Assembly: GCA_944380885.1 (NCBI GenBank)
Contig: CALWIZ010000007.1
Coordinates: forward strand, 5,122 to 69,121
Direction: 5' to 3'
Length of the DNA stretch: 64,000 nt
Origin: an uncultured Clostridia bacterium
GTDB taxonomy: Bacteria > Bacillota > Clostridia > Oscillospirales > Acutalibacteraceae
Made by a program: the position numbers and the translations under genes. Every line of letters begins with the position of its first letter. Positions within the stretch are counted from its first letter, which is position 1. Below, in pieces: positions 19,681 through 61,954 of the stretch. The notes below the pieces were generated by a model. The model made no database searches. It was not told the DNA's origin and saw only the letters and a list, made by a program, of their open reading frames with translations.

Positions 19681-21606
19681 ATGAAAAGCGTTAAAAGATT
19701 TTCAGCATTATTGACATCAATTATAATGACATTTTCTCTGATTATAGTTTCAGCGTCCGACGCAGAAATAAAAATTATTAAAGAGGTTACTCCTGAGACT
19801 ATGGATTGGTCGGCGGAGGAAGTAGCATATATTGATTTTTCCGAAATTGACAGCATTTCCCTTGAGGACGGCGCTGTGGGACACGGAATAAAACTTTTAC
19901 CTAATAACGGCGCTACTTCATGGAAAGCGGCAAACCGGCTTTCGGAAGACGGATATCTGCTTTTCGGTAAAGAAGCAAATACTGACGGCGGCAATCCGGA
20001 AAAGCTGGATTTCGGCAATGTCTATTTTAATGTTGATGTACCGCTTGCGGAAAAGGCAAAAACCGCATATGCGTTAAAGGTGGATTATTACGGCGGCGGA
20101 ATCGGAGTTGACGCCGGTTCGTATATAACATTTTGCTACAATAATTCGGAAAAGGCGGAATATACCACCGGTCAGTATAAATACGGCTCTACCTATAACA
20201 GCGGTAAAGTTGAAAGTATGTATGTCCTGCTTTCAGACGCCAATCTTTCCGAAAACGTAGGGACTCCGAAGGGCGATATCCGTATGAATACATGGACCGG
20301 AGCCCAGCTTAAAATACGGCGTATTTCTATTGTCGAATATTCGCCTCTTGTAACGCCAGAGCTAAAAGAAGTATATAAGGGGCCCAAAAAGGAAATAGCC
20401 ACTATTGATTTTTCCGATTTTTCAGAGACAGATATAACAAACGGGAGCTTCGCCGGAAACGGACTCACATTGCTTACAACGCAGGATACGGGTGCGGCTA
20501 TGGCTTCCAATCTGATGGAGGACGGTTATCTTCTTCTCGGAAAACAGGCGCGGCAGACAGGCGCGGACAGCTATGCCAACGGCGCGATCTATTTAAAGCT
20601 GGATATTGCTCCCGCGGATAAGGGCAATACGGCATATGCCGTAAAAGTTGAGTATTACGGAGGAGGCATAGGTACAGATGCCGGCTCTTATATAGATTTG
20701 CGTTATAACAGCGCGACAAGCTCTGCTGCGAGCAAACGCAACACATACGGTGCTACTTATAACAGCGGAAATCTTGAAGCTATGTACTTCCTCCTCGATA
20801 ATGCCGATTTTTCCGAAACAATACAGAACAGCACCTGCGGCGCGGATTTCAGGCTTGAGACCTGGTGCGGAAACGGCACAACAACCGGCGCGCAGCTTAA
20901 AATCAAATCGGTTTCTGTTGTGGAATATGATCCGTTAAAAACTTCGGAAAACGCCGAAAAGCTTTTCAATGTATATTCTGAGGGCAGTGTTCCGACCGAA
21001 ACGGCCCTTATAAATGCGAATACAGGCGAATATACCGGAATGACTTATTCTTCGGCGGTGAATGTTTATAAGCTTATCGATTTGAATGACATTGAGCATT
21101 TTGTGGCTCTTCCCGCATATGACGCAAACGGTCTCGGCACATTCGGAGTTACCGTTTCTCCGGAGGATACGTATGTAAAGAATACCAAGCAGGCAGAAAT
21201 AACCGTATATTATTGGGATGTAGGCACAGGCAATTTCAATATTGAATATAATTCATCTGACGAGGGAGCATACAAGCGCACCGAGACAGTTGTCCTTGAG
21301 GATACCAAGGAGCTTAAATCGCACACATTTACATTGACTTCAGTTGCTTTTACCGGCGCTCAGACCGGAGGCTTTGATTTTAAACTGCTTACGCGTCAGA
21401 ACGATTTCTGTATTGAGAAAATAGTTTTGACAGCCGAGGTAAAATCGGGAGACGTTAACATGGACGGCGAGGTGGCGTCTGAAGATATCGCGGCTCTTGT
21501 CAAGCACCTTATGGGGTCTGAGGTTTACGAGAATACCGATGTTAACGGAGACAATGCTGTAAACATATTGGATCTGATAAGAATTAAAAAGCTCCTTGCT
21601 GAGTAA
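19681..21606 (+). CDS. secreted three-module putative glycan-binding protein with C-terminal type I dockerin
   Basis: Signal peptide, then two ~190-aa internally repeated modules (...DYYGGGIGVDAGSY...GAQLKIRRISIVEY / ...EYYGGGIGTDAGSY...GAQLKIKSVSVVEY) and a third beta-sandwich-like module. The dockerin duplicate Ca-binding loops are GDVNMDGEVASEDIAALVKHL...DVNGDNAVNILDLIRIKKLL. Confidence 0.8.
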   Translation: MKSVKRFSALLTSIIMTFSLIIVSASDAEIKIIKEVTPETMDWSAEEVAYIDFSEIDSISLEDGAVGHGIKLLPNNGATSWKAANRLSEDGYLLFGKEANTDGGNPEKLDFGNVYFNVDVPLAEKAKTAYALKVDYYGGGIGVDAGSYITFCYNNSEKAEYTTGQYKYGSTYNSGKVESMYVLLSDANLSENVGTPKGDIRMNTWTGAQLKIRRISIVEYSPLVTPELKEVYKGPKKEIATIDFSDFSETDITNGSFAGNGLTLLTTQDTGAAMASNLMEDGYLLLGKQARQTGADSYANGAIYLKLDIAPADKGNTAYAVKVEYYGGGIGTDAGSYIDLRYNSATSSAASKRNTYGATYNSGNLEAMYFLLDNADFSETIQNSTCGADFRLETWCGNGTTTGAQLKIKSVSVVEYDPLKTSENAEKLFNVYSEGSVPTETALINANTGEYTGMTYSSAVNVYKLIDLNDIEHFVALPAYDANGLGTFGVTVSPEDTYVKNTKQAEITVYYWDVGTGNFNIEYNSSDEGAYKRTETVVLEDTKELKSHTFTLTSVAFTGAQTGGFDFKLLTRQNDFCIEKIVLTAEVKSGDVNMDGEVASEDIAALVKHLMGSEVYENTDVNGDNAVNILDLIRIKKLLAE

Positions 21607-21684
21607 TCGGCTTATAGAAAATTCAGTTCACCTGTTTTTTTCAGACAGCGGAAGCGCTTTTGAAATATTTTGTGGAGGTTGAAT

Positions 21685-24600
21685 ATGTTCAACAAATTAA
21701 AAACATCTTTAGCAGCTTTACTTTCTGCTTTGATGCTTATTACGCTTGTGCCGGTATCTTCCGGATATAGGGCGGAAGCGGCTGATGAGACGCAGAATGA
21801 TATTCAAATAATAAGAGATGATCCGTCGGCTCTTGACTGGGAGGCTGAAGAAGTCGCGTATATAGATTTTTCGGAAATCGACCAAATTTCTCTTACAGAT
21901 GGCGCCGAGGGACACGGTATAACCCTTTTGCCGAATAGCGGAGCGACCAGCTGGAAGGCTGCCAACCGGCTTTCGGATGACGGTTATATGCTGCTCGGAA
22001 AAGATTCAAATACAGATGGCAGTGATCCCGAAACTTTTGATATAGGTCATATATATTTAAGGCTGGATATTCCTTTAGAGGACAAAGCCGATACACCGTA
22101 TGCTGTAAAGCTTGACTATTACGGGGGCGGTATAGCGGTTGACGGCGGTTCTTATGTAGATCTTTACTATAATTCAACTGCCGGCAAAGAGGCGTCCTCC
22201 CGTATAACCTACGGCAGCGATACATATAACACCGGTAAGGTTGAAACCAAGTATTATTCGTTACCTGAGGCTGATTTTGCCGAGTCTGTAGGAACACCTA
22301 AGGGAGATATACGTCTTTCGACATGGAATAATGCCCAGCTTAAAATACGCAGGGTTTCGATTGTTAAATACGATCCTCTTGATATTCCTGAAATGGTAGA
22401 ACTTTCAAAGGGCAGCGAGAGTGAGGAACCGATTGCGAAAATTGACTTTTCGGATTTGTCCGGTACAGATATATCCAACGGTGCTTTTGAAGGCGACGGT
22501 CTTACATTGCTTACCACGCAGGCTACGGGCAGTACAACTGCCTCAAACCGTATGGAGGACGGTTATCTGTTGCTCGGAAAGCAGGCAAGACAGACCGAGA
22601 CGGATACTTTAACCAACGGCGCTGTATATATAAAACTTGATATTCCGCTTGTTGAAAAAGCGGAAACACCATATGCGGTAAAGATTGAATATTATGGCGG
22701 CGGGTTAGGAGTTGACAGCGGTTCTTATATCAACCTACGATATAACAGTACTTCAAGTGATAATTCCGCCAAGCGAAATACTTATGGCTCTGCATATAAC
22801 AGCGGTAAGCTGGAAACTATGTATTATTTACTTGATGACGCGGATTTCAGCGAGACAATAAGAGACAGCGGCTGCGGCGCGGATTTCAGACTTGAGACCT
22901 GGTGCGGAAACGGTACGACGACCGGCGCGCAGCTTAAAATAAAATCTGTATCCGTTGTGGCATATGACAGTGAAAACCCGCCTGCCGATCCGTCTTCACT
23001 TTTTCCGAGCGAGGCTGTGGGAGAAATACCGGATGATACCGTATTTATCAATCCTAATAAGGGACAGTATTACGGTATTACCTATTCCAGCGGCACGCCT
23101 GTCGTTCAGATAATAGATAAAGACGGCGCTGCGCATTATGCGGCTCAGTCTGTTGACTATCTTAACTTTAAAATTACAGATCCGGAAGTAAAAGCGGCGG
23201 ATAAGGTTACGCTTATAATACGCTACTGGGATATAGGCAAAAGAACATTTTCGGTAGAGTATAATGCCGAAACACCGGATCCATTGCCGGAAAACACTTC
23301 GGAAAGCTACTATACCTATTTTTCAACGTCTTCAATAGAAATGACGGACAGCAAGGAACTGCTTACTGTTGAAATTCCTTTGGAGAATGCTGCCTTTGCA
23401 GGCAAGCAGAACGGAGCAAATGATTTCCGCATACGCTCAATGTATATTACTGATTTCTATATCGAAGAGGTCGCCGTGCGTATAGGTGTAGAGGATGTTA
23501 CACAGTACAAGCCTCCGGAATTCCCTGAAATGACAGATATAAATAATTTCAAGGATAAAACAGTCGTAGGCTATCAGGCATGGTTTAAGGCGTCTGACAG
23601 TGAAACCAGCGGTTGGGATCACTGGAATTCCGGTTCTGCTCCTGCCGGAGGAAAACAGACTTTTGATGTTTATCCCGATGTGAGTGAATATCCGGACAGC
23701 GTGCTGTATCAGACCGGTTATGCCGATTTGCTTAACGGGCAGCCTGCGGTACTTTATGACGGCACATCCAAGGAAGCCATTGATTTACAGGTAAAATGGA
23801 TGCAGGAATACGGTATTGACGGCTTTGCGGTTTCACGTTTCTATTCCGGCACAAGTTCATTCCAGATACCTGGAACCAATAAGATTGATTATATGGTAGA
23901 ATCTGCGGAAAAATATGATCGGCTGTTCTATTTGGGTTATGATCTTTCCGGAATCGGCGGTAACGGTGAGTCGGGCATCAGACGTCTTCAGTTCGATTTT
24001 GTGCTTAACGTTGAACAGAAGTTTGTATCTTCTCCCAATTACGCTCAGATAGACGGCAAGCCGGTTGTAAGTCTTTGGGGCTTCCAGGGTTCGCAGTTTG
24101 ACCGTTATCCCAATACCGAGAATGCGCTTATGCTTATTAACTGGTTTAAGGAAAGAGGATATTATGTAATCGGTGGTGTTCCTGACAACGACTGGGCTAA
24201 TGATACTTCGGATTATGCGGCGGTTTATGAAGCGCTTGATATGATTACCCCGTGGACTGTCGGACGTTTCAATCACACAAACGCACAGTCTTATCTTGAA
24301 GGCAAGTACGAACAGGACAGAGCATGGCTTGATGATTACAATGCGGAGCATCCCGATGATCAGAAGGAATATATGCCGACGATTTTCCCGGGATTTTCGT
24401 GGGCAAACTGGGCGTCAGGCGCACCAAACTCAACTGCGCGGCTTGCAGGAGAGTTTATGTGGGATCAGGCTACTCTTGCTAAAAAATACGGATTCACATC
24501 TTCTTTCATAGCTATGTTTGATGAATACGACGAAGGTACATCGATTCTGAAAATGGCAGAGGACTCTATGTCTATACCGAGTGATCAGTACTTTGTTACT

Positions 24601-25851
24601 GCGGCTGCCGACGGCAAATGGCTTTCTTCGGATTTTTATATGCGGCTTACCGGAGCAATCAGCGATATGCTGCGCGGCGAACTGCCGGCAACAGATGATG
24701 TTCCGATTCCGCACGCTACCGGTCCGGTATTTTGGCGCAACGGCTTTGAGAGACGTTACATCAACTATAAGGGCAACAATAATCAGATTACTACCGCTCT
24801 TGCTAACATCGATGTATGTGTACCCGATGGTGAAGTACTTATAAACAATGGTATAGAAGATCTTTATATGCTTGATATGTATGAAGATCCTTATAAGGAA
24901 GGCTATACCACAACCGGAGATTATTCGTTTAAGCTTAACGGTCTTGCGGCTCCGGAAAGCGGAAAGGGTCAGTTTTATTTCCAGATTGCCGAAACCGACA
25001 TAGAAGTTCGCGACAATATGGTGCTTTCCTATAACTTGCGTTCCGATAATGATCTTGGCGGATTTGTATTTGTTGATTTAATGCTCGATAACGGAAAGAA
25101 ACTGAGTGAAATAAACGGCAGCAAAGTGAAAGCTAAACGCGGGACAGACGGTGAATGGACCCCGGTAACTTTGGCACTTGATTCTTCACTTACGGGCAGA
25201 ACCATTGAAAGCGTTATTATAGCGTATGAGTCGGAGTACACCGGTGAATTTGACGCTTACATAGATGATATAGTTATTGAATATGCTGACGCTACGCAAG
25301 AGGGTCTGAAAGAATTGGTTGCACGTGCCGAATCAATTATTGCCGGAGCGAATGCTGAAAGCTACACTGCAGCTTCCGTAAAAGACCTGCAGGCTGCTGT
25401 TTCAAAGGCAAATAGTCTAATTAACAGCGGCAGCGCAAGCGAATCCGCTCTCAAAGCAGCCTATTATGAGTTGGTAGACGCAATGAACGCACTTGTCGGT
25501 ATAGTAAAGACCAAGCCTGTGGCTGAAGATCCTGATGAGAATAAAACGCCGTCTGATATGAACAATAATCAGGGTAACAGTCAGAATAGCAGTCAAAATA
25601 ACAATGAAAGCAGCGGTTCAGATAATAACAGCATCACTGAAGAACCTGAGGAGACTCCCGAAGAACCGATAGAGAATCCGAACGAGTCTACAGATAAGAC
25701 GCCCGAAGAAAATCCGGCGGACACCACCGGAACTGATACGGAAAAGGGATCGTCAATACCTTGGCTTCTTATTGGAATTATAGGCGGAGTAACGGTTGTT
25801 TTACTCGGACTGATGGTCATTTATTCGGTGAAAAAAGGTAAAAAATCTTAA
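21685..25851 (+). CDS. membrane-anchored multi-domain surface enzyme: the same three N-terminal modules as the preceding gene, GH99/GH71-like (beta/alpha)8 domain, CBM-like beta-sandwich, helical FIVAR-like segment, acidic/Asn-rich linker, TM anchor
   Basis: Start at ATG 21685 after GGAGG. The N-terminal ~590 aa is collinear with ORF 19681..21606. The catalytic-like region reads VVGYQAWFKASD..GWDHWNSG...WMQEYGIDGFAVSRF...IAMFDEYDEGTSIL, which resembles the GH99 pattern YYxWY..W.HW...SFNEWHEGTQIE. The C-terminus is IPWLLIGIIGGVTVVLLGLMVIYSVKKGKKS. Confidence 0.7.
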   Translation: MFNKLKTSLAALLSALMLITLVPVSSGYRAEAADETQNDIQIIRDDPSALDWEAEEVAYIDFSEIDQISLTDGAEGHGITLLPNSGATSWKAANRLSDDGYMLLGKDSNTDGSDPETFDIGHIYLRLDIPLEDKADTPYAVKLDYYGGGIAVDGGSYVDLYYNSTAGKEASSRITYGSDTYNTGKVETKYYSLPEADFAESVGTPKGDIRLSTWNNAQLKIRRVSIVKYDPLDIPEMVELSKGSESEEPIAKIDFSDLSGTDISNGAFEGDGLTLLTTQATGSTTASNRMEDGYLLLGKQARQTETDTLTNGAVYIKLDIPLVEKAETPYAVKIEYYGGGLGVDSGSYINLRYNSTSSDNSAKRNTYGSAYNSGKLETMYYLLDDADFSETIRDSGCGADFRLETWCGNGTTTGAQLKIKSVSVVAYDSENPPADPSSLFPSEAVGEIPDDTVFINPNKGQYYGITYSSGTPVVQIIDKDGAAHYAAQSVDYLNFKITDPEVKAADKVTLIIRYWDIGKRTFSVEYNAETPDPLPENTSESYYTYFSTSSIEMTDSKELLTVEIPLENAAFAGKQNGANDFRIRSMYITDFYIEEVAVRIGVEDVTQYKPPEFPEMTDINNFKDKTVVGYQAWFKASDSETSGWDHWNSGSAPAGGKQTFDVYPDVSEYPDSVLYQTGYADLLNGQPAVLYDGTSKEAIDLQVKWMQEYGIDGFAVSRFYSGTSSFQIPGTNKIDYMVESAEKYDRLFYLGYDLSGIGGNGESGIRRLQFDFVLNVEQKFVSSPNYAQIDGKPVVSLWGFQGSQFDRYPNTENALMLINWFKERGYYVIGGVPDNDWANDTSDYAAVYEALDMITPWTVGRFNHTNAQSYLEGKYEQDRAWLDDYNAEHPDDQKEYMPTIFPGFSWANWASGAPNSTARLAGEFMWDQATLAKKYGFTSSFIAMFDEYDEGTSILKMAEDSMSIPSDQYFVTAAADGKWLSSDFYMRLTGAISDMLRGELPATDDVPIPHATGPVFWRNGFERRYINYKGNNNQITTALANIDVCVPDGEVLINNGIEDLYMLDMYEDPYKEGYTTTGDYSFKLNGLAAPESGKGQFYFQIAETDIEVRDNMVLSYNLRSDNDLGGFVFVDLMLDNGKKLSEINGSKVKAKRGTDGEWTPVTLALDSSLTGRTIESVIIAYESEYTGEFDAYIDDIVIEYADATQEGLKELVARAESIIAGANAESYTAASVKDLQAAVSKANSLINSGSASESALKAAYYELVDAMNALVGIVKTKPVAEDPDENKTPSDMNNNQGNSQNSSQNNNESSGSDNNSITEEPEETPEEPIENPNESTDKTPEENPADTTGTDTEKGSSIPWLLIGIIGGVTVVLLGLMVIYSVKKGKKS

Positions 25852-31156: not shown

Positions 31157-31164
31157 CATTTTGC

Positions 31165-31263
31165 AATTCAGGGAGCTTGATGAAACTCAGGCTGAGAGGG
31201 AGTCCGTCTTTTGACTATGGCTCCGACCTGCGACCTGATACGGATAATGCCGTCGTAGGGAAA
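31165..31263 (+). promoter_or_regulatory. TPP (thiamine pyrophosphate) riboswitch aptamer
   Basis: Conserved cores ...GGGAGC...CTGAGAGGG... and ...ACCTGATACGGATAATGCCGTCGTAGGGA. It is followed by its own terminator and then thiT. Confidence 0.85.
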
Positions 31264-31279
31264 TACACAAAATGTATTG

Positions 31280-33508: not shown

Positions 33509-33783
33509 AAATGATAAAGGCATTGACGAAGACGGTCCGGAATGACTGCTTTAAGAGAGCCGGTGGTTGGTGTGAACCGGCAGTACGTATTCCAGAGTGA
33601 CCCATCGCTTCCGAGCCGGAGCACTGAATTCGCAAGACAGTAGGTTCTCCCGTGATTGCTGCGTAAAGGCATAGGGATTGTTGGATCCCAAGAGGTGGCG
33701 GCTTTCATGCCGCAATTTGAGTGGTACCGCGGATGTATTTTCACACCCGTCTCAAGGATTTCTTGAGACGGGTGTTTTTATTT
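33509..33783 (+). promoter_or_regulatory. T-box riboswitch leader 1 (inferred specifier AUC, Ile)
   Basis: GA/K-turn TTGACGAAGA paired with CTTCCGAGCC. AG bulge AAGAGAG. Distal loop GGTTGGTGTGAA. T-box sequence AATTTGAGTGGTACCGCGG at 33713-33731. Terminator CACCCGTCTCAAG-5 nt-CTTGAGACGGGTG plus TTTTT at 33744-33779. Candidate specifier ATC at 33604-33606, followed by G and then the CTTC strand of the basal helix. Confidence 0.8.
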
Positions 33784-36129: not shown

Positions 36130-36418
36130 CATCAAAATTCAAAGGCGCTGACGAAGAGGATACGGCTGATGCTTTTAAAGAGAGATAACGGTTGGTGTAA
36201 GTTATCAGAGAAAGGCCTGTATTTGTAGCTTCCGAGCCGGGAGGAAGAAAGTTTTTAACGAGTAGAACCTCCCCGTGACTGCTGCGTAAAGGCATAGGAA
36301 TTGTTTGATTCCAAGAGTGGCGGCTTTTCTGCCGCAATTTGAGTGGTACCGCGGGCTACCGATATATATGTATTTCGGCGCTCGTCTCAAAGTCATAACT
36401 TTGGGACGAGCGTTTTTT
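36130..36418 (+). promoter_or_regulatory. T-box riboswitch leader 2 (inferred specifier GUA, Val)
   Basis: Same architecture as leader 1. CTGACGAAGAGG paired with CTTCCGAGCC. AAAGAGAG. GGTTGGTGTAA. T-box sequence AATTTGAGTGGTACCGCGG at 36336-36354. Terminator CGCTCGTCTCAAAG-6 nt-CTTTGGGACGAGCG plus TTTTTT at 36379-36418. Candidate specifier GTA at 36225-36227, followed by G and CTTC. Confidence 0.8.
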
Positions 36419-43127: not shown

Positions 43128-43163
43128 AAGCGTATCCGTTTTTTTGCGGATACGCTTTTATTT
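43128..43163 (+). terminator. rho-independent terminator after ilvE
   Basis: AAGCGTATCCG-loop TTTTTTTG-CGGATACGCTT followed by a T-rich tail. The same GCGTATCCG/CGGATACGC stem recurs after htpG. Confidence 0.85.
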
Positions 43164-43180
43164 GTCGAGAAACCTTGAAC

Positions 43181-43421
43181 GGAAAGCAAATTGTATAAAC
43201 GTAATTTCAGTCAAACCTTTTTGGAAGGTTTGCGTATTCTATCTAAAGGCGGAGCCTTTAGCCTCTTTCCGCAGAAAGCGGAACTTTTTTGTCTTATAAA
43301 ACTCAGGAAAGGGTGAAAAAACAGTCCGGTGGACTGTTCCTGTGGGAACCCCTCCTCGTTGGTTTCCTTTTAACTGACTATTTATTTGTGCAAGTTTTTA
43401 ATTGGAGATGACTTTCTTGAC
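43181..43421. repeat. multi-hairpin intergenic repeat, full-length copy A (MITE-like)
   Basis: Aligns with 61467-61706 over its whole length and with 51354-51455 over the left half. Hairpins: CAAACCTTTTTGGAAGGTTTG (43212-43232), TAAAGGCGGAGCCTTTA (43244-43260), TTCCGC-AGAAA-GCGGAA plus T6 (43267-43290), A-run plus ACAGTCC-GGT-GGACTGT (43315-43337). Confidence 0.8.
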
Positions 43422-43495
43422 ACTCTCAAGCACCCGAAAGGGTGCTTTTGTCGTTAAACGCAGCTATAAAATTTTTATATGTATACTCTTGAGCA

Positions 43496-48047: not shown

Positions 48048-48164
48048 AAACGCGGCTTATAGGTTAAAAAAGAACAGCCCATTGCGCCGCATCTGTCGCC
48101 AAAAAAACAAAATGCGGCTGAACGCCGCAAAAAAAAATGAAATTCGAGGTTTATCGACAGACTG

Positions 48165-48204
48165 AACCGGACACCCATAAAAAATGTGGGTGTCCGGTTT
48201 TTTA
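48165..48204 (+). terminator. rho-independent terminator
   Basis: AACCGGACACCCA-9 nt-TGGGTGTCCGGTT followed by TTTT. Confidence 0.75.
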
Positions 48205-51297: not shown

Positions 51298-51337
51298 CGC
51301 GTATCCGTATTTTTGAGTGCGGATACGCGTTTCAGTT
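51298..51337 (+). terminator. rho-independent terminator after htpG
   Basis: CGCGTATCCG-12 nt-CGGATACGCG followed by TTTCAGTTT. Confidence 0.75.
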
Positions 51338-51353
51338 TGTTAAAAAACTCAAA

Positions 51354-51455
51354 CGAAAAGCAAATTGTATATATGCAGAAGTTTAGGTCAAACCTTTTCA
51401 AAGGTTTGCGGTTTCTAAAGGCAGAGCCTTTAGCCGCTTTCCGCAGAAAGCGGAA
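51354..51455. repeat. multi-hairpin intergenic repeat, truncated copy B (left half only)
   Basis: CGAAAAGCAAATTGTATATATG...TCAAACCTTTTCAAAGGTTTGCGGTTTCTAAAGGCAGAGCCTTTAGCCGCTTTCCGCAGAAAGCGGAA aligns with copies A and C. It ends at 51455, directly against the pyrI stop codon (51456-51458). Confidence 0.8.
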
Positions 51456-51872
51456 TTATTTCGCCTTTGTCTCGCAGTATATGCAGCGGTAGATCCTGCG
51501 GGCGCGGTCGGTTAATTTAAAAATCTGGGGCAGCTCCTGCTCGGTCGCCGAAATGCAGCGCGGATTTTTACAGGTCAGCACGCCGGTCAGCTTTTCGGGA
51601 AGGGCTATGCTCTTTTTCTCAACTGTTTTGCCGTCCTTTATTATGTTTACCGTGACGTCGGGATCAACATATCCCAAAATATCGGTATCAACATCAAAAT
51701 CCGAATCGATTTTGATAATATCCTTTTTGCCCATTTTGCGGCTGGAAACATTTTTTATAAGCGCCACCGAGCAGTCGAGCGAATCAAGCCCCAAAAGATT
51801 GTAAATCCGCATGCCCTGTCCGGCGGTAATGTGGTCTATCACTATTCCGTTCTTTATGGAATCAATATTCAT
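51456..51872 (-). CDS. pyrI: aspartate carbamoyltransferase regulatory subunit
   Basis: 138 aa. IKNGIVIDHI and the Zn motif CKNPRC...CIYCE. Confidence 0.9.
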   Translation of the reverse strand: MNIDSIKNGIVIDHITAGQGMRIYNLLGLDSLDCSVALIKNVSSRKMGKKDIIKIDSDFDVDTDILGYVDPDVTVNIIKDGKTVEKKSIALPEKLTGVLTCKNPRCISATEQELPQIFKLTDRARRIYRCIYCETKAK

Positions 51873-52784
51873 TTATTCCACCTCCAGCAGCATTAAAATA
51901 AGCGCCATTCTCATATATTTGCCGTAAAGCACCTGCTTGAAATAGCAGGCACGGGGGTCTTTGTCAACAGCAACGCTTATTTCGTTGACACGGGGCAGCG
52001 GGTGAAGTATACACATATCGGCGCGCGCGTTTTTGAGCTTTTCGGGAGTTAATATATAGCTGTCTTTGAGCCGGAGATAATCCTCTTCGTTGAAGAAACG
52101 CTCTCTCTGTACCCTTGTCATATAGAGAATATCAAGCTGCGGCATAGGCTCCTCAAGGCTTGTCGTTTCGGTGTAGGGGATACCCTTGTCGTCAAGCGTC
52201 TGCTTTACATAGCCGGGCAGCTTTAACTCCTGCGGCGAGATAAGCACGAATTTTACGCCCATATAGCGGGACAGCGCGGCTATTAGCGAATGTACCGTCC
52301 TGCCGAATTTAAGGTCGCCGCAAAGACCGACTGTCAGGTTCTCAAAGCCGCCCTTCTCGCGGTAAATCGTAAGCAGGTCGGCAAGTGTCTGGGTCGGGTG
52401 ATTGTGGCCGCCGTCGCCGGCGTTTATCACCGGAACGCTCGCGTTCATTGCCGCCACAAGCGGCGCGCCCTCTTTAGGGTGGCGCATGGCTATGATATCG
52501 GCATAGCAGGATATTACTTTAGCGGTGTCCGCCACGCTCTCGCCCTTTGAGGCTGAAGAACTCTGCGCCTCTGAAAAGCCTATTACGTTTCCGCCAAGCT
52601 CGTACATAGCCGCCTCAAAGCTGAGCCTTGTTCTTGTGGACGGCTCGAAAAACAGGGTGGCGAGCTTTTTGCCTTTGCATTTTTCACTGTATTTCGCCGG
52701 ATTTCCTATAATATCGTTGGCGGTTTTTATAAGCTGTTCAAGCTCGTCTGTATTAAGCTCTAAAATATCTATAAGGCTTCTCAT
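51873..52784 (-). CDS. pyrB: aspartate carbamoyltransferase catalytic subunit
   Basis: [22 protein letters not shown]. 303 aa. Directly abuts pyrI. Confidence 0.95.
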
Positions 52785-53425
52785 TTCGCCGCACCTATCC
52801 AGCTTTCGTCTGACGGGTTGTTTCTGAACGCTATAAGCCGCTTTATATCCTCCGGCTTTATATAGCCGTTCTCCGCCGCTACCTCGGCTATGCAGTCAAA
52901 ATCGGTAAGGCTTATGTTTTTAAGGTTCGCCGCGGCTAAGCGGTCAAGCCCCTTCTGCATTCCGTAGGTGAATATTGAGGCTATACCCAGCACTTCTGCG
53001 CCTGCCTCACGCAGAGCCTCCGCAACCTCGATAACGCTGCCGCCGGTGGAAATAAGGTCTTCTATGATAACTACCTTCTGACCCTTTTCGAGTCTGCCTT
53101 CAATGCGGTTCTGTCTGCCGTGGTCTTTGTTGCCCGAACGGACATATCCCATAGGCATATCAAGCAGGTGAGCTGTTATCGCCGCGTGGGCGATACCGGC
53201 GGTTGATGTGCCCATAAGCACCTCAGCTTCCGGATAATTTTCCTTTACCACTTTGGCAAGGCTTTGCTCAACGTCGTTTCTCACTTCGGGAGCTGTAAGG
53301 GTAAGCCGGTTGTCACAGTAAACCGGACTTTTAATGCCGCTCGCCCATGTAAAAGGCTCCTCGGGGCGGAAGAAAACTGCCTGTATTTTTAAAAGGTCGC
53401 TTGCTATAAGTCTTTTGATATCCAT
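52781..53425 (-). CDS. pyrE: orotate phosphoribosyltransferase
   Basis: PRPP motif [13 protein letters not shown]. 214 aa. 4-nt overlap with pyrB. Confidence 0.9.
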
Positions 53426-53437
53426 TTTTTCTGCTCC

Positions 53438-54136
53438 TTATCCTACAAATTCCTTAACGCAGCGTTCGTATGCCGCCACGGGGTCTTCCGCCGCGGTTAT
53501 CGGTCTGCCGACAACGATATAATCGCTGCCTATTTGCTTTGCCCTTTCGGGGGTTGTCACTCTTGACTGGTCGCCCTTGTCGCCGTCGGCGAAGCGAATG
53601 CCGGGGGTGACGGTGTAAAAGCCCTTTCCGCAGACGCTGTGCACCGCCGCCGCCTCGAGCGGTGAGCAGACAACGCCGTCAAGTCCCGCTCTTTTGGCGT
53701 TTAAGGCGTAGTGCATAACCACCTTTTCCATCGGCTTTTCTATAAGCAGGTCAGAGCGCATTCTTTCCTCGCTCGTTGAGGTAAGCTGGGTCACGGCTAT
53801 AAGTATCGGTCTTGTGCCGTCGGGACGGGTAAGCCCCTCAAGCGCCGCCTCCATCATAGCGACGGTGCCGCCCGCGTGCAGGTTGCACATATCGACATCA
53901 AGGCGGGAGAGCACCGCCATAGATTTTTTGACCGTGTTCGGAATATCGTGCAGCTTAAGGTCTAAAAATATTTTGTGACCTTTTTCCTTTATGTCCCTTA
54001 CAATCTGCGGGCCCTCAGCGTAAAAAAGCTCCATACCTATCTTGACAAAAGGCTTTACGCCGGTAAACTTATCAAGAAATGACATACATTCAGCTTTGCC
54101 GGCGAAATCGCAGGCTATTATAACGTCCTTACCCAT
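53438..54136 (-). CDS. pyrF: orotidine 5'-phosphate decarboxylase
   Basis: [19 protein letters not shown]. 232 aa. Confidence 0.9.
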
Positions 54137-55046
54137 TGTGCGCTCCTCCTATAATATCTTTAAGATTGTTTATACCGTATTTCTGCATTACACGCGGCAG
54201 GTCTTCTATAATATTTTTGCAGGCGAACGGCTCCACAAGGTTCGCCGCTCCTACCTCGACGGCGGCAGCTCCCGCCAGCATCATTTCAATTACGTCCTCG
54301 GCTGTGGAAATGCCGCCCATACCGACTATCGGGATTTTTACCGCCTCGTATACCTGATAGACCATTCTTACCGCAACCGGCTTTATCGCAGGTCCCGAAA
54401 AACCGCCGGCTTTGTTGGCAAGCACCGGCTTTTTGGTTTTAAGGTCTATTCTCATTCCGAGCAGGGTGTTTATAAGCGAAAGTCCGTCCGCTCCCGCTGC
54501 CTCGCAGGCTTTGGCTATCTCGGTTATATCTGTAACATTCGGGGAGAGCTTTATAAGCACCGGCTTTTTTGTCACCTTTTTTACCGCCGCGGTGACCGCC
54601 GCCGCGTTTTCGCAGCTTGTGCCGAAAGCCAGTCCGCCGCCGTGGACATTAGGGCAGGAAATGTTTATCTCAAACCAGCCTATCGCGTCCTCACGGTCTA
54701 AAATCTCGACCGCCGCCGTGTAATCCTTTACCGAAAAGCCGCTTACATTCGCCATAAGCGGTTTTTTGAATACCTTTTTAAGCCTCGGCAGCTCCTCTGT
54801 AAGCACCTTTTCGGCTCCGGGGTTCTGAAGCCCCACGGAGTTGAGCATTCCCGCCTCACATTCGGCGATTCTCGGTGTCGGGTTGCCGAAGCGCGGCTCT
54901 ATCGTCGTTCCCTTAAAGGAAATCGAGCCTAAGCAGTTAATATTGTAAAGCTCGGCGAACTCATAGCCAAATCCGAAAGTGCCGCTTGCCGGTATTACGG
55001 GATTGTCAAGCCTTACGCCGCAGAGAGTTACTTCAGTGCTTCCCAT
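54129..55046 (-). CDS. pyrD: dihydroorotate dehydrogenase B, catalytic subunit
   Basis: [22 protein letters not shown]. 305 aa. 8-nt overlap with pyrF. Confidence 0.9.
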
Positions 55047-55771
55047 TCGATTTCCTCCCTTTCAAATACCGGCCCGTCCTTGCAGACCCGCTTCGCGCCG
55101 TTTTTGGTCATTAAACTGCACCCCATACAGGCGCCGAAGCCGCAGCCCATACGCTCCTCAAAGCTGAACTGTCCTGACGTTTCAGCGTTCGCGTTTACCG
55201 CCTTAAACATGGGCAGCGGTCCGCAGGAATAAATATAGCTGTACTCGGTTTTGTCCATAGCCGCGGTCACAAAGCCCTTTATGCCGTGACTGCCGTCGGC
55301 GGTGGTGACAAAAACCTCACATCCGAGATTTTTGAACTCATTTTCGTAAAATATTTCTGTTCTTGTGTTAAAGCCTAAAATAACAGCAGGCTTTTTGCCC
55401 TCGCTTATCAGCTTTTTGCAGAGTGCGTATAGCGGGGGGATACCCACGCCGCCGCCTATTATAAGCGGTTTTTCGCCGCTTCCCCGTGTATCAAACCCGT
55501 TGCCTAAGGAGATAAGCAAGTCAAGCTCATCGCCGGACTTTTTAAGACTTAAATTCTCCGTTCCGCCGCCGACCGTTTTGTATATAAGGGTAAGGCTGTC
55601 GCCGTCATAATCGCATATAGAAATAGGGCGGCGCAGATAAAACCCCTCTAACTTTATATTGACGAACTGCCCGGGAGCGGTAATATCCGAGGTGTCCCCC
55701 GCCAGTACCATTTTATAGACTGACGGGGCGATATTTTCGTTTGATGTTATTTTAAAAATTTCCTGTTTCAT
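55028..55771 (-). CDS. pyrK: dihydroorotate dehydrogenase B, electron-transfer (FAD/2Fe-2S) subunit
   Basis: [16 protein letters not shown]-terminal [10 protein letters not shown]. 247 aa. 19-nt overlap with pyrD. Confidence 0.9.
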
Positions 55772-55780
55772 TTTATCACC

Positions 55781-58700
55781 TTAGGCGTCAATGGTGGAGA
55801 TGCCGAGGGTGGTTTCCTCAAGCACCGATAAAAGCACCTCTACCGTGTCGAGCGATGTGAACATCGTGACGTTGTTCTCAACGGCGCAGCGGCGTATCTC
55901 GTGGCCGTCGGTTATACCGTCAGGCGAGCTTATATCCCTTGTGTTTATAACATAGGTCACATAGCCCTGTCTTATGGCGTCCGGAATTTCACGGCTGCCG
56001 TCGCTTATCTTCTTAACCGCGTGGGTGCGTATACCGTTTTCCTTTAAGAATTTAGCCGTACCCTCGGTCGCCTGAATGTTAAAGCCCATATTGTAGAAAC
56101 GGCGGATAAGGGGCAGAGCCTCCTCCTTGTCCTTGTCGGCTATCGTGGCAAGTACCGTGCCGTAGTTCGTAACATTCATACCGCTTGCCTTAAGCGCCTT
56201 GTAAAGCGCCCTTGTCAGCCTGTCGTCGTAGCCTATCGCTTCTCCGGTAGACTTCATTTCGGGCGAGAGGTAGGCGTCAAGTCCTCTGAGCTTTGAGAAC
56301 GAGAACGCCGGAGCCTTTACATACCAGCGCTTTTTCTCCGCCGGATATATCCTGTCAAAGCCCTGCTCTTTAAGGGACTTTCCGAGTATTACAAGTGTAG
56401 CTATGTCGGCAAGACTGTAACCCGTCGCCTTTGAGAGGAAGGGGACTGTTCTTGACGAGCGGGGATTTACCTCGATTATAAATACGTTTTCGTCCTTATC
56501 GACTATAAACTGTATGTTGTAAAGTCCTACAATGCCTATGCCGAGCCCCAGCTTTTTTGTATAGTCAAGTATGGTTTCCTTGGTTTTTTCGCTTATGCTG
56601 AAGGTCGGGTAAACGCTTATAGAGTCGCCGCTGTGTATTCCGGTGCGCTCAACAAGCTCCATAATACCGGGCACGAAAACGTCGGTGCCGTCGCATATCG
56701 CGTCGACCTCTACCTCCTTGCCCGAAATGTACTTATCTACAAGCACCGGCTTGTCCTCGTCTATCTCAACGGCGGTGCGCAGATATCTGCGGAGCTGTTT
56801 TTCGTCGGCGACTATCTGCATGGCTCTGCCGCCCAGCACGAACGACGGGCGCACAAGCACCGGATAGCCTATTTCCGCCGCCGCTTTAACGCCGTCCTCA
56901 ATTTTTGTTACCGCCTGTCCGCGCGGCTGTGGTATGTCAAGCTCTTTGAGCACCTTTTCAAATAAATCCCTGTTTTCGGCGCGGTCAATAGCGTCGCAGT
57001 CGGTGCCGATTATCTTAACGCCGCGGTCGTGCAGACTGTCTGAAAGATTGATAGCGGTCTGACCGCCTAAAGACGCTATTACACCTATCGGGTTTTCAAG
57101 GTGGATAATGTTCATAACGTCCTCGGTGCAGAGCGGCTCAAAATACAGCTTGTCAGAGCAGGTGTAGTCGGTCGAGACGGTTTCGGGGTTGTTGTTTATG
57201 ATTATCGCCTCATAGCCGGATTTTTTGATTGTGGTTACGGCGTGCACCGTTGAATAGTCAAACTCCACACCCTGACCTATTCTGATAGGACCTGAGCCTA
57301 AAACGATTATCTTCTTCTTATCGGATACCACCGACTCGTTTTCTTCCTCGTAGGTCGAGTAGAAATAGGGGATATAGCTTTCAAACTCGGAGGCGCAGGA
57401 GTCTATCATCTTGTAGACCGGGAACATATTTTTTTCACAGCGTATATTATAAATATCCTTGCCGGTCATACCCCACAGCTTGCCGATAAAGTCGTCCGAA
57501 AAGCCCATTTTCTTCGCCTGATACAAAAGTTCGGTGTCGCCCTTGTTAGCGGCGAGCTTTCTTTCCATTCGGACGATATTTTTAATCTTTTCAAGGAAAA
57601 GCATATCGATTTTTGTCCGGTCGTATATAAGACCCATATCGGTATTACGGCGCAGAAGCTCGGTTACGGCGCATATGCGGTCGTCGGTGCCGTCGGCAAT
57701 GTAGCTTAAAAGCTCTTCCTCAGAATAGCTGTCAAACTTTTTCATATAAAGGTGGTTTATGCCTATTTCAAGCGAACGCGCCGCCTTTAAGAGGCTTTCC
57801 TCTATCGTTCTGCCTATGCTCATTACCTCGCCGGTCGCTTTCATCTGGGTGGAGAGCTTGTTGTTCGCGGATGAAAACTTATCAAACGGGAAACGGGGCA
57901 TTTTTGAAACAACATAGTCAAGCGCCGGCTCAAAAGACGCCGGAGTGTTGGCGAGCATAATCTCGTCAAGGTGCATACCGACCGATATTTTCGCCGATAC
58001 CCTCGCTATCGGGTAGCCGCTCGCCTTTGAGGCTAACGCAGAAGAACGTGAAACACGGGGGTTTACCTCTATGAGATAGTAATTAAAGGAAAGCGGGTCA
58101 AGCGCGAACTGCACGTTGCAGCCGCCCTCTATTTTAAGGGCACGGATTATTTTAAGCGCGCTGTCACGCAGCATATGGTATTCCTTGTTGGTAAGGGTCT
58201 GTGAGGGGCATACCACTATCGAGTCGCCTGTGTGTATTCCCACCGGGTCTATGTTTTCCATATTGCATATGGTAATGGCGGTGTCGTTCGCGTCACGCAT
58301 TACCTCGTATTCTATTTCCTTGTATCCCTTTATGCTTTTTTCCACAAGCACCTGATGAACAGGGGATAACTCAAGCGCGCCGCGCAGAATTTCGGCGCAT
58401 TCCCCGGCGTTGTCGGCAAAGCCGCCGCCCGTGCCGCCTAAGGTAAAGGCGGGGCGCAGTACGACAGGGTAGCCTATCTTTTCTGCGGCGTCAAGTCCGG
58501 CTTCCATGCTCTCGGCTATTATAGAGGGCAGTACCGGCTCGCCTATCTCCTCGCAAAGCTCCTTGAAAAGCTCTCTGTCCTCGGCGCGCTCTATGCTGCG
58601 GCTCGATGTGCCTAAAAGCTCCACATTACATTCACGCAGAACGCCTTTTTTCTCAAGCTGCATAGCAAGGTTGAGTCCGGTCTGACCGCCTATTCCGGGC

Positions 58701-58960
58701 ACAATAGCGTCGGGGCGCTCGTAGCGTATGACCTTCGCGAGATATTCAAGGTTTAAAGGTTCCATATAAACCTTGTCCGCTACCGTGGTGTCGGTCATTA
58801 TCGTGGCGGGGTTGGAGTTGCAGAGTACTACCTCGTAGCCCTCCTCTTTAAGCGCTAAGCACGCCTGCGTTCCGGCATAGTCAAACTCCGCCGCCTGACC
58901 TATTACGATAGGGCCGGAGCCTATTACAAGTATCTTTTTAAGGTCGGTTCTCTTAGGCAT
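55781..58960 (-). CDS. carB: carbamoyl-phosphate synthase large subunit
   Basis: 1059 aa. [23 protein letters not shown] is duplicated internally as [21 protein letters not shown]. Confidence 0.95.
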
Positions 58961-60047
58961 TTTCTTTCCCCTCCATCAGGCTGATAAACTGGTCGAACAG
59001 ATAGGCGCTGTCCTGCGGACCGGGCGCGCTTTCGGGGTGGTACTGAACGGAGAATATCATATCCTTTTCGTCCTTTACACCCTCGACCGTGTTGTCAAGT
59101 ATGTTTTTGTGCGTAACGGTAAGTCCTGTGCCTTTAAGGCTTTCCTCTCTTACCGCGTAGCTGTGGTTCTGCGAGGTAATTTCAATCTTTCCGGTCTCAA
59201 GGTTCTTTACCGGGTGGTTTCCGCCTCTGTGACCGAATTTCAGCTTGTAGGTTTCTGCGCCTAAAGCAAGCGAAATCATCTGATGACCGAGACAAATACC
59301 GAATATCGGGTATTTGCCCTTAAGCTGTCTTACAAGCCCGATTACCGGCGTTACGTCCTCGGGGTCTCCCGGGCCGTTTGATAAGAAAATACCGTCCGGC
59401 TTGCATTTGATGACGTCCTCCGCCGAGGTGTTGTAGGGCATTACGGTCACGTTACAGCCGCGCGCGTTAAGGCTTCTTATAATGTTGTGCTTTATTCCGC
59501 AGTCGATAGCGACCACATTAAAACGGGCGTTTGCGGTTCTTGAATACCAGCGCTTTTTACAGCTTACCCTTGAAACGGCGTCGTGCGGAACGGGGGTTTC
59601 TCTTATTATTTGGAGCGCTTTTTCGTCGGACGTATCAATATCGGTTATAATGCCGCGGCGGCTTCCGAGGTCTCGTATGCTTCTTGCTAATTTTCTTGTG
59701 TCTATACCCTCTATTCCGGGGATTTTGTATTCCTCCATAACTTCAGAGAGGGTTTTTGTATAGCGAAAGTTTGAGGGCAGATCGTTGTACTCCCTTACGA
59801 TAAGTCCGCCTATTGTCGGCACTTTAGTCTCATAGTCCTCGTCGGCTATACCGTAGTTGCCTATGAGCGGATAGGTCATAACCACCGCCTGATATGTATA
59901 TGACGGGTCGGAAATTATTTCCTGATATCCTACAACCGATGTGTTGAAAACCAGCTCGCACACACGCTCGCCGTCAAAGCCGAAGCCGTAGCCGGTGTAA
60001 ACCGCGCCGTCCTCGGTTACAAGTTTTTTCATCTTTCGCTCTGCCAT
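58953..60047 (-). CDS. carA: carbamoyl-phosphate synthase small (glutaminase) subunit
   Basis: GICLGHQ catalytic Cys, [16 protein letters not shown] 60047 has a GGAGG RBS. An alternative ATG at 60032 overlaps the pyrC stop. Confidence 0.9.
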
Positions 60048-61258
60048 ACCGTTTTACCTCCGCATACTGTAATAAGATTTCTGCCGTTTACCTTTACGCC
60101 CTCAAACGGGGTGCTCCTGCCCATCGAGAGAAATTCCGCCGGATTTATCACGTACTCCGCGCCAAGGTCATAAACGCAGAAGTCTCCTGTGTCTTCTATC
60201 CCGAAACGCTTTCTCGGGTTAATTGCCATAAGCTCTGTAAGTTTTTCAAGCGTTATTATTCCGGTCTTTACAAGGAAAGTATACAACACCGGAAAGGCGG
60301 TTTCAAGTCCCACAACGCCCATAAGGCTTTTTTCAAGCCCGCGCGACTTTTCCTCCGCCGAGTGTGGGGCGTGGTCGGTGGCTACCATATCTACCGTGCC
60401 GTCCTTTATACCCTCTATAAGCGCAAGCCTGTCCCTTGCCGAGCGCAGGGGCGGGTTCATTTTAAACCTGCCGTCTTCCTTTAAGTCGCTGTCGTCAAGC
60501 ACAAGGTAGTGGGGAGCGGTCTCGCAGGTCACGTCAAGCCCTTCGGCTTTCGCTTTTCTTATAAGCTCCACGCTCTCGGCGGTCGAGATATGGCAGACGT
60601 GGTATTTACAGCCGGTTTCTTTCACAAGCCGCAAATCACGCTCTATCTGCCGCCATTCGCTCTCACTGCATATGCCTTTGTGTCCGTGCGCTTTCGCGTA
60701 CTCTCCGTCGTGTATATATCCGCCCTTTAAAAGGGAGTTGTCCTCGCAGTGGGCGGCGATTATTTTTCCGAGCCGCTTTGCCTCAAGCATCGCGCGGCGC
60801 ATCAGATCCTCGCTCTGCACGCCCCTGCCGTCGTCCGAAAAGGCTATGCAGTTTGGTGCCGTACTTTCCAAATCGGCAAGCTCCGCTCCGGCTTCGCCCT
60901 TTGTTATGGCGGCGTAAGGGTGTACCTTTATAACGGCGGTTTCCTTTATAATGTCGGTCTCAATTTTTAAATTCTCGGCACTGTCGGGCACAGGATTCAG
61001 GTTCGGCATTGTGCAGACGTCGGTATAACCGCCCCTTGCCGCCGCAAGCGAGCCCGATTTTATAGTTTCCTTATAAAAAAATCCCGGTTCTCTGAAATGT
61101 ACGTGTACATCGCAAAAAGCCGGTAAAACATAAATATTATTAAAATCGGAAAAACTGCCGGCAAAGGAACCGGCGGAAATAAAGGAATCAAGCGGAAAAT
61201 CTTTCTTTATGAAAGAACCGTTTTTATATATGTTTGCGTTTTTGAGTCGCAGTTCCAT
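60029..61258 (-). CDS. pyrC: dihydroorotase
   Basis: DVHVHFREPG, ATDHAPH. 409 aa. RBS GGGAGAG. Confidence 0.9.
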   Translation of the reverse strand: MELRLKNANIYKNGSFIKKDFPLDSFISAGSFAGSFSDFNNIYVLPAFCDVHVHFREPGFFYKETIKSGSLAAARGGYTDVCTMPNLNPVPDSAENLKIETDIIKETAVIKVHPYAAITKGEAGAELADLESTAPNCIAFSDDGRGVQSEDLMRRAMLEAKRLGKIIAAHCEDNSLLKGGYIHDGEYAKAHGHKGICSESEWRQIERDLRLVKETGCKYHVCHISTAESVELIRKAKAEGLDVTCETAPHYLVLDDSDLKEDGRFKMNPPLRSARDRLALIEGIKDGTVDMVATDHAPHSAEEKSRGLEKSLMGVVGLETAFPVLYTFLVKTGIITLEKLTELMAINPRKRFGIEDTGDFCVYDLGAEYVINPAEFLSMGRSTPFEGVKVNGRNLITVCGGKTVWQSER

Positions 61259-61421: not shown

Positions 61422-61466
61422 CACAAACCGGAAGAAAAAAATTCAGACTGTCGATAAATTTAAAAC

Positions 61467-61706
61467 GGAAAGCAAATTGTACAAATATAAAAGTTTCGGT
61501 CAAACCTTTTTTAAAGGTTTGCGGATTCCAAAGGCAGAGCCTTTGGACGCTTTCCGCAGAAAGCGGAACTCTTTTTGCCTAATTAAACGCAGGAAAGGGT
61601 GAAAAAACAGTCCGGTGGACTGTCCCTGTGGGAAACCCTCGTCGGGGGTTTCCCTTTAACCTGCTCTTTATTTGTGCAATTTCCCAATTAAAGATGACTT
61701 TTTTAC
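61467..61706. repeat. multi-hairpin intergenic repeat, full-length copy C (MITE-like)
   Basis: Collinear with copy A. It carries the block CAGGAAAGGGTGAAAAAACAGTCCGGTGGACTGT(C/T)CCTGTGGGAA, which differs from copy A at one position. Internal ends AAATTGTACAAATA (left) and TATTTGTGCAATTT (right) form a 13/14 inverted repeat. It lies between the pyr promoter and the AT-rich island. Confidence 0.8.
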
Positions 61707-61723
61707 AAGCCGAGAAAAAATCA

Positions 61724-61954
61724 TCAATCGTCCTCAAGCAGTTTTGAGGGCGGAATATTCAAGACCTGAGCGATTTTAAAAAGAGTTTCGAGTGAAATAC
61801 CTTTGACCGTTCCGGAACCTTCCACTTGTCCTACAAAGCTGACACTTTTATCAATCATTTCCGCAAGGACTTCCTGCGTTAAACCAGCCTTTTTTCGGTA
61901 ATATGCTATTTTAAGTCCAAGTGTTATATAACGCTCCGGAAATTCGGTTTTCAC
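61724..61954 (-). CDS. XRE-family HTH transcriptional regulator
   Basis: 76 aa, LGLKIAYYRKKAGLTQEVLAEMIDKSVSFVGQVE. Confidence 0.8.
   Translation of the reverse strand: MKTEFPERYITLGLKIAYYRKKAGLTQEVLAEMIDKSVSFVGQVEGSGTVKGISLETLFKIAQVLNIPPSKLLEDD

Follow-up and report, generated by a model that had tools for sequence, protein, structure and literature searches.

The window, the whole 64-kb stretch of DNA analysed here, carries four copies of a short intergenic repeat that measures about 271 nt (271-272 nt) when complete. Two of them, A and C, are full length, B is truncated and D is a mini copy (Table 1). Copy A separates a class IV aminotransferase gene from a convergent ORF of 168 aa, copy D lies between an ABC transporter gene and the convergent gene of a ParA/Mrp-type NTPase, and copy B between htpG and the convergent pyrI; copy B stops directly past hairpin 3, at the pyrI stop codon (minus strand). 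Copy C has on one side the stop of a minus-strand XRE-type HTH gene and on the other the start of the pyr operon (pyrC), likewise on the minus strand. Copies B and C, in the same orientation, stand on either side of the pyr operon (51456-61258, minus strand).

Copies A and C can be aligned over about 260 nt with 83% identity, and the left 106 nt of copy B with 88% identity. An invariant 19-mer, CTTTCCGCAGAAAGCGGAA, is found at 43265, 51437 and 61550, against a chance expectation of 0.02 in the window. The repeat blocks quoted in the initial annotation of this DNA were all found where it had placed them. The extents that it gave to copies A, C and B (43181-43421, 61467-61706 and 51354-51455) were too short, and it counted three copies, having missed the 78-nt copy D. 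Its statement that the repeat contains no credible ORF holds: the only ORFs present, of 40-51 aa, differ or carry stops between copies, and none is conserved. A small toxic peptide starting from a GTG codon at 43310 was rejected as a candidate, because copies A and C differ there by many non-synonymous changes and other members of the family have a stop.

Copies A and B each adjoin, at their true left ends, a terminator hairpin formed by GCGTATCCG and CGGATACGC. The common stem of these two terminators had been noticed in the initial annotation; they are real and not a coincidence, with 0 such hairpins expected by chance. The same hairpin occurs at several loci of the species that are unrelated to one another, namely twice in the window and at positions 236, about 1310 and 1609 of a related locus (L043; loci in other genomes and metagenomes are cited in this form), and one of these sites has an inverted loop and no adjacent element. 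The hairpin may have spread through duplications made by the element and later rearrangements. One end of copy D is well kept (TCAGTCTGTCGATAAACCTC, reading the minus strand from 48165) and the other is degenerate (CATCTGTCGCCAAAAAAAC); a short hairpin, GCGGC TGAAC GCCGC, separates them. The ortholog of the copy D site in L043 has an identical hairpin and a spacer of 57 nt vs 130 nt; it was rejected as an empty site for copy D since, although the spacer is shorter, the divergence is too great for a clean empty site.

Table 1. Positions of the repeat copies, their parts and the adjoining features in the window
Feature	Position	Strand	Remarks
Terminator hairpin of the class IV aminotransferase gene, GCGTATCCG / CGGATACGC	43130..43155		A-run before, TTTT after; adjoins copy A left end
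Copy A of the predicted MITE, full length, 272 nt	43157..43428	+	sequence, fold, alignment
Copy A left end, degenerate, TTTATTTGTCGAGAAAC	43157-43173
Copy A hairpin 1	43212-43232
Copy A hairpin 2	43244-43260
Copy A hairpin 3	43262-43281		followed by T6 at 43285-43290
Copy A hairpin 5	43321-43337
Copy A hairpin 6	43344-43367
Copy A right end, CTTTCTTGACACTCTCA	43412-43428
Different terminator-like hairpin, AGCACCC GAAA GGGTGCT, then TTTT	43429..43449	+	adjoins copy A right end
Mini copy D, 78 nt	48088..48165	-	found by end pattern
Terminator hairpin, ACCGGACACCCA TAAAAAA TGTGGGTGTCCGGT, then TTTTTT	48166..48203	+	adjoins copy D
Terminator hairpin downstream of htpG, GCGTATCCG..CGGATACGC	51299..51328		adjoins copy B left end
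Copy B of the predicted MITE, left end and hairpins 1-3 only	51332..51455	+	right-truncated
Copy C target-site duplication, left, short and A-rich, GGAAGAAAAAAAT	61430..61442
Copy C of the predicted MITE, full length, 271 nt	61443..61713	+	left end TCAGACTGTCGATAAAT, right end TTTTTTACAAGCCGA
Putative sigma-70-like promoter, TTGACC-16 nt-TACAAT	61476..61503	-	inside left part of copy C; sequence reading
Copy C target-site duplication, right, GAAAAAATCA	61714..61723

Elsewhere in the window, Rfam identifies a TPP riboswitch and a T-box leader (31159-31278 and 33514-33757). A stretch at 36272-36354, located 2.6 kb downstream and before a paralogous gene, is 91-95% identical to part of the T-box (repeats D1, D2, D14 and D16) and does not reach the Rfam gathering score. 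Internally repeated segments of about 570-590 nt (repeat families D3-D8) in two adjacent large ORFs of 641 and 1393 aa (19681-25851) suggest repeated domains in surface-type proteins.

Family distribution, ends and target hairpins

Searching a single genome of each species, with the 19-mer as anchor, yielded 74 loci, mostly in metagenome-assembled genomes (MAGs) of uncultured Clostridia from animal guts, and thus provided the further copies that the initial annotation had proposed to look for. The hosts include Merdivicinus, Caccousia, 'E13__bin199' (about 17 loci in one MAG) and 'BRZ_F__bin41', which is 91-96% identical to the window in common genes. Public sequencing runs place the bacterium of the window in the chicken gut, and in DNA runs from this source the element's core is covered 10-30 times more deeply than the flanks, with contigs ending at copies. 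Among 47 copies with crude ORF calls, the convergent (+/-) gene context is the commonest (19/47), and 12 copies lie in a +/+ context, after a co-directional gene. BLAST of copy C against plasmid and phage collections gave no match, and matches of a degenerate right-end pattern in viral contigs were mostly chance, only seven of them being paired with a left end. Matches of the end pattern inside genes (L037:1702, L050:5593, L079:7878 and 11432) were likewise dismissed as chance. A tandem repeat (TTTCTGAA, in L040 ...TTTTCTGAATTTCTGAATTTCTGAATTTCTGAATTT...) adjoins the left side of a copy without a recognisable left end (L040:830-880). A text search of the literature for the end and core sequences returned chance matches only, and a description of the element or its ends was not found in the searchable literature.

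Alignments of many copies place the ends of the element at 16-17-nt imperfect terminal inverted repeats, TCAGNNTGTCGAWAAAC ... GWTTTTCGACANNCTGA, with the consensus TCAG-NN-TGTCGAWAAAC on the left and GWTTTTCGACA-NN-CTGA on the right; they are degenerate in copy A. Some way inward from each end, at about 30 nt, a second box is conserved (on the left AAATTATACAAACGTAAAAG, on the right, as reverse complement, AAATTGCACAAATAAAGAG). The sub-terminal inverted repeats described at first are not the true ends, which lie 6-24 nt further out on each side; the conservation seen past the right repeat was real, as the alignment of copies places the ends further out.

Many copies are flanked on both sides by the same hairpin. 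About 13 of about 45 copies compared in this family (fam1) have an identical hairpin on both flanks, with a sequence specific to each locus (CCGGACCTTTTCAGGTCCGG at L073, GCACCGTTCAAATGAACGGTGC at L048 and GGAGAGCGCGATGCGCTCTCC at L054; also at L061, L037 and L019). In L043, the ortholog of copy B, the GCGTATCCG..CGGATACGC hairpin stands on both sides of a full-length element. The duplication, 20-31 nt long, covers the palindrome to within a few bases, the A-run remaining with the left copy and the T-run with the right one. The initial annotation had left it undecided whether the flanking hairpin is part of the element or its insertion target. It is the target, duplicated whole, and the hairpin at the left end of copy A lies outside the element.

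This association was also found from the ends alone. A search of metagenomes for an 18-nt left-end pattern gave at least 120 loci. Among the matches listed, 75 of 113 distinct left ends adjoin a hairpin, compared with 13 of 436 control windows. A repeat of the flank beyond the opposite end was seen in 28 of the 69 elements listed, compared with 0/339 mismatched controls, and the orientation is direct in 33 of the 36 flank repeats among these matches. A duplicated flank is thus present in only about 40% of elements, and the rest may be old, rearranged or otherwise inserted.

Neither copy A, with its unlike hairpins, nor copy B, which has no right half, shows a clean duplication on its own. The mismatch between the hairpins of copy A suggests an exchange of flanks between copies, and recombination between copies best explains both these unlike flanks and the truncation of copy B. 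The breakpoint of synteny between the window (51455/51456) and L043 (position 1482) coincides exactly with the end of hairpin 3 of copy B. The target of copy C contained no hairpin, and its duplication is short and A-rich, of about 8-12 nt. A contig from run X24 joins position 61428 to 61724 by 14 other letters (TAAAGGAAAAAATC) and is therefore without copy C, which is thus missing in a related strain. This is a single contig, of depth 4.9, from a run labelled as RNA-Seq of a metagenome, and the empty site is supporting rather than decisive evidence. Four DNA runs searched for an empty site of copy A all carry the element.

In three loci (L020, L024 and L052) the loop of one of the hairpins is inverted. 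At another locus, sequenced in different samples, L200 differs from L203 and L281 by an inverted loop in the right-hand hairpin (GGCATTTTACC vs GGTAAAATGCC); the duplicated flank is there at least about 60 nt long and takes in the 3' end of a gene. The orientation of this loop is the only difference between L200 and L203, and the inverted loops of the first three loci can be explained by a secondary flipping of the same kind. Elements may also stand in series: in L078 (11517-11576) and L079 (11526-11543) a right end is followed by a single hairpin and then by the left end of another element, so that neighbouring elements can have one hairpin in common. Between rpmH and rnpA in L041, the 25-nt sequence GCGTCGCAGACTTCCGCTTTCCGCAG occurs twice (4551-4580 and 4930-4960) with about 370 nt between; this looks as if an insertion had taken place into the loop of the GCGTCGCAGACTTCCGCTTTCCGCAG hairpin, with duplication.

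Insertion sequences with the same ends

The autonomous element suggested as a search target in the initial annotation was found in other metagenomes and genomes; a transposase with these ends was detected neither in the window nor in 8-kb loci of the same genomes, and a search for multi-copy proteins among the ORFs of the 74 genome loci gave no transposase either. The metagenomic insertion sequence (L194:8927-10441) has the ends TCAGACTGTCGAAAAACC and TTTATCGACAGTCTGA, about 1.5 kb apart, and an ORF of 471 aa with the domains DUF772, DDE_Tnp_1 and DDE_Tnp_1_6. The encoded protein matches NCBIfam NF033551, 'IS1182 family transposase', with 410.6 bits (cut-off 270). The left end of the repeat, TCAGTCTGTCGATAAAC, agrees with that of the insertion sequence, TCAGACTGTCGAAAAAC, at 15 of 17 positions, and the right ends match likewise. 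Relatives with 69-72% identity (P0018, P0023 and P0014) have the same ends.

On long contigs, the relatives of this insertion sequence also have an identical hairpin on both sides, as in L312-L314 (with AGGCTCTACTATAAGGTAGAGCCT), in L315, in L319 and, on a 3.8-Mb contig, in L322 and L323. Among the short contigs of P0018, a hairpin found on the left of one contig recurs on the right of another, which is the behaviour of an assembler confronted with a multi-copy insertion sequence having duplicated flanks.

The ends and the insertion signature of the repeat in the window, as read from sequence, are those of a clade of IS1182-family insertion sequences. The presence of the same ends and of whole-hairpin duplication in these 1.5-kb elements argues that the repeat is a MITE of that family, with the flanking hairpin as its target. 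We consider it very probable that the repeat is a non-autonomous MITE moved in trans by an IS1182-family DDE transposase. Since its partner is known from other metagenomes, its activity in the organism of the window is putative. The earlier view of a MITE-like mobile family agrees with the inverted ends, the target-site duplications, the empty site, the many copies and the matching autonomous insertion sequence. A conserved structured core would not be expected in a plain DDE-type MITE and counts against this reading.

The proposed insertion path corresponds to pathway b of the cruciform model of IS1272 (PMC5678879). The transposase would join the two ends of the element to the two strands at the two feet of the palindrome, which is probably extruded as a cruciform or as a hairpin on the lagging strand, and gap filling would then copy the whole palindrome; on ordinary DNA the stagger would be only of about 8-12 nt. 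A terminator-like hairpin would be left on each side, the left copy lacking the T-run and the right copy lacking the A-run, and therefore transcription from either neighbour may enter the element. In the window copies, read-through on the plus strand would meet hairpin 3 followed by T5-6, and read-through on the minus strand would meet ACAGTCC/GGACTGT followed by T6, located at 43321-43337 in copy A and at 61607-61623 in copy C.

The hairpin interior

A core of 180 nt, from AAAAGTTTCG to GGGGTTTCCCC, consists of a chain of hairpins. The hairpins of the initial annotation are real. The third had been taken as TTCCGC/GCGGAA only, and its best and stable fold is CCGCTTTC-CGCA-GAAAGCGG. In 45 distinct left halves, 9 of the 22 predicted pairs show two-sided changes that keep the pairing, with up to four pair types per position, and in 27 right halves the same holds for 6/17 pairs. 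These compensatory changes affect hairpins 1, 2, 5 and 6, whereas hairpin 3 is invariant in the set because it was used as the search anchor. The core is retained in copies with decayed end regions.

The initial annotation had also proposed that a plus-strand and a minus-strand terminator together make the repeat a portable bidirectional insulator. This fails across the family. The T-run of hairpin 3 varies, and the minus-strand terminator (an A-run plus ACAGTCC/GGACTGT) is not a family feature: in most members the A-run and the T-run on either side of hairpin 5 pair with each other within a longer stem, AAAACAGTCC/GGACTGTTTT, and the terminator-like appearance is therefore particular to the window copies. 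Since these signals are not conserved, a bidirectional insulator would be, at best, a local property of the copies in the window.

The interior is modular. In Merdivicinus the same left half is joined to a different right half, and in Caccousia the left half stands alone in front of a gene. The same ends also enclose, in elements from the human gut, GC-rich hairpin interiors that are quite different. A second repeat family, present in other Clostridia (SUG277, Evtepia and RUG12702), has only hairpin 3, TTCCGCTTTCCGCAGAAAGCGGAA, in common with the first, in the arrangement ...GCGTCGCAGACTTCCG[hairpin]CAAAATCCAATCATTTTTTCGCCGG... (L016, L023, L032, L033, L035, L038, L041, L047, L051, L055, L062, L068 and L071; also L230, L233 and L245). 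Metagenomic relatives of this second family have the same transposon ends and a co-varying hairpin 3 with a preserved loop (TTCCTGCGGCCGCAGCCGCAGGAA, TTTGCGCCCGCAGGCGCAAA).

The left part of the element contains a promoter-like site directed outward through the left end; in copy C it faces pyrC, with which the pyr operon begins. Copy B also has TTGACC-16 nt-TACAAT, and the copies of the nearest genome TTGACC-16-TATAAT; in copy A a deletion of 3 nt reduces the spacer to 13 nt, and judging by this spacing the site is probably dead. The pyrC gene has a promoter-like site of its own at 61421-61393.

Structured interiors could also belong to a family of non-coding RNA genes, small or cis-regulatory, in which the ends of the repeat would form a closing helix and the lateral hairpins would be the RNA's own terminator and that of its neighbour. 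The preserved pairing of hairpins 1, 2, 5 and 6 (9/22 pairs on the left and 6/17 on the right), the retention of the 180-nt core where the ends have decayed, the hairpin plus T-run on the plus strand after nearly every copy, and the occurrence of hairpin 3, with its CGCAG loop, in an otherwise different repeat family would all fit such genes. The ends, however, belong to IS1182-family insertion sequences, the hairpins on the two flanks have the same sequence, which goes beyond complementarity, and an empty site exists. G-U pairs give no strand signal, about 10 fitting the plus strand and 8 the minus strand, and a plus-strand promoter with normal spacing cannot be read. Rfam searches, at gathering score for the window and 17 loci and up to an E-value of 10 for copies A and C, found nothing on the element, which bears out the absence of a known RNA family; the matches at gathering score were limited to the T-box and the TPP riboswitch elsewhere in the window and to tRNAs in related loci, and the best weak match on the element, to trpB, scored 30 bits, with a cut-off of 59. 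In DNA palindromes, moreover, template-switch correction can produce compensatory change without selection. An RNA gene family is accordingly judged improbable.

Even less probable is a REP/BIME-like or IS200/IS605-type palindromic element that a Y1 HUH transposase would move in the form of single-stranded DNA. The numerous hairpins, their compensatory changes, the intergenic position and the multiple copies would be in keeping with it, but elements of the HUH type have neither terminal inverted repeats nor target-site duplications, both of which are present here; no gene for such a transposase lies near any copy, and a DDE transposase with the same ends has been found. That the copies represent leaders or untranslated regions conserved with orthologous or paralogous genes, as the left module upstream of the same GTPase-like gene at the same place in two Caccousia species (L003 and L004) might indicate, can be practically discarded, because the copies of the window adjoin genes without relation to one another (aminotransferase, ABC transporter, htpG, pyrI, pyrC and HTH genes), most copies follow the ends of genes, often between convergent ones, and an empty site exists.

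For a MITE of the IS1182 family, the paired changes in the interior may reflect either a requirement in cis or an exapted function, or be a by-product of the correction of palindromes by template switching. It is conceivable, although we hold it only tentatively, that the interior is a functional module which the element needs or the host took over, that is, a cis site for the transposase or a host factor, or a portable terminator-plus-promoter cassette. This idea is put forward because the stems are kept by compensation, the core outlasts the ends, and the CGCAG-loop hairpin is common to unrelated interiors. If true, such a cassette would repair the termination disturbed by the insertion and re-wire neighbouring genes, here the pyr operon.

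Related systems and significance

Direct repeats recorded in ISfinder for the IS1182 family range from 0 to 60 bp. Two members from staphylococci, IS1272 and TnSha1, insert into stem-loops, mostly terminators, without sequence preference, and delete or replace the stem-loop without duplication (PMC4923244, PMC5678879). That some IS1182-family members target palindromes is stated in a review cited in both papers (PMC4923244, PMC5678879), and doubling of the entire stem-loop was drawn as a possible outcome for IS1272 (PMC5678879). The repeat described here resembles IS1272 and TnSha1 in its ends, which are inverted, of about 16 nt and associated with an IS1182-family DDE enzyme, and in the choice of a stem-loop by shape, usually the intrinsic terminator right after a gene. 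It differs from them in duplicating the whole stem-loop, in having no transposase and in its size of 271 nt. The MITE itself is of a known kind, as are terminator hairpins as targets; its mode of insertion is unusually neat.

Other small mobile repeats share part of these traits. Like Correia elements of Neisseria, RUP and BOX of the pneumococcus, and ERIC, the repeat is small, gene-less, multi-copy and intergenic, with inverted ends and possible promoter- or terminator-like signals that may affect neighbouring genes. Those elements have short, fixed duplications (TA for Correia) and are not known to target terminators by structure, whereas the present one duplicates a hairpin of 20-31 nt and has a modular interior that recombines under the same ends. 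Class C (IIC) group II introns recognise intrinsic terminator hairpins by structure and home to their foot, which is also the target here. They produce no target duplication and have no inverted ends; the repeat has both, and it has no intron RNA domain, reverse transcriptase or Rfam intron match. Extragenic hairpins are targets too for IS1397 and ISKpn1 and for elements of the IS110 family, which recognise a specific REP sequence and insert in or near its loop, unlike the element of the window, which takes any terminator hairpin, at its foot.

Elements with these ends are very common in gut Clostridia, as indicated by the at least 120 metagenome loci detected with one 18-nt end pattern. They sit precisely on terminators and would therefore alter the 3' ends, the read-through and, in some species, the promoter input of many genes. 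They also confuse the prediction of terminators, small RNAs and repeats in MAGs, and break assemblies at their copies. The duplication of whole hairpins constitutes a clean natural record of a transposase that reads the shape of DNA and not its sequence and, as a small substrate that is easy to mark, the element makes the cruciform-target model proposed for IS1272 directly testable.
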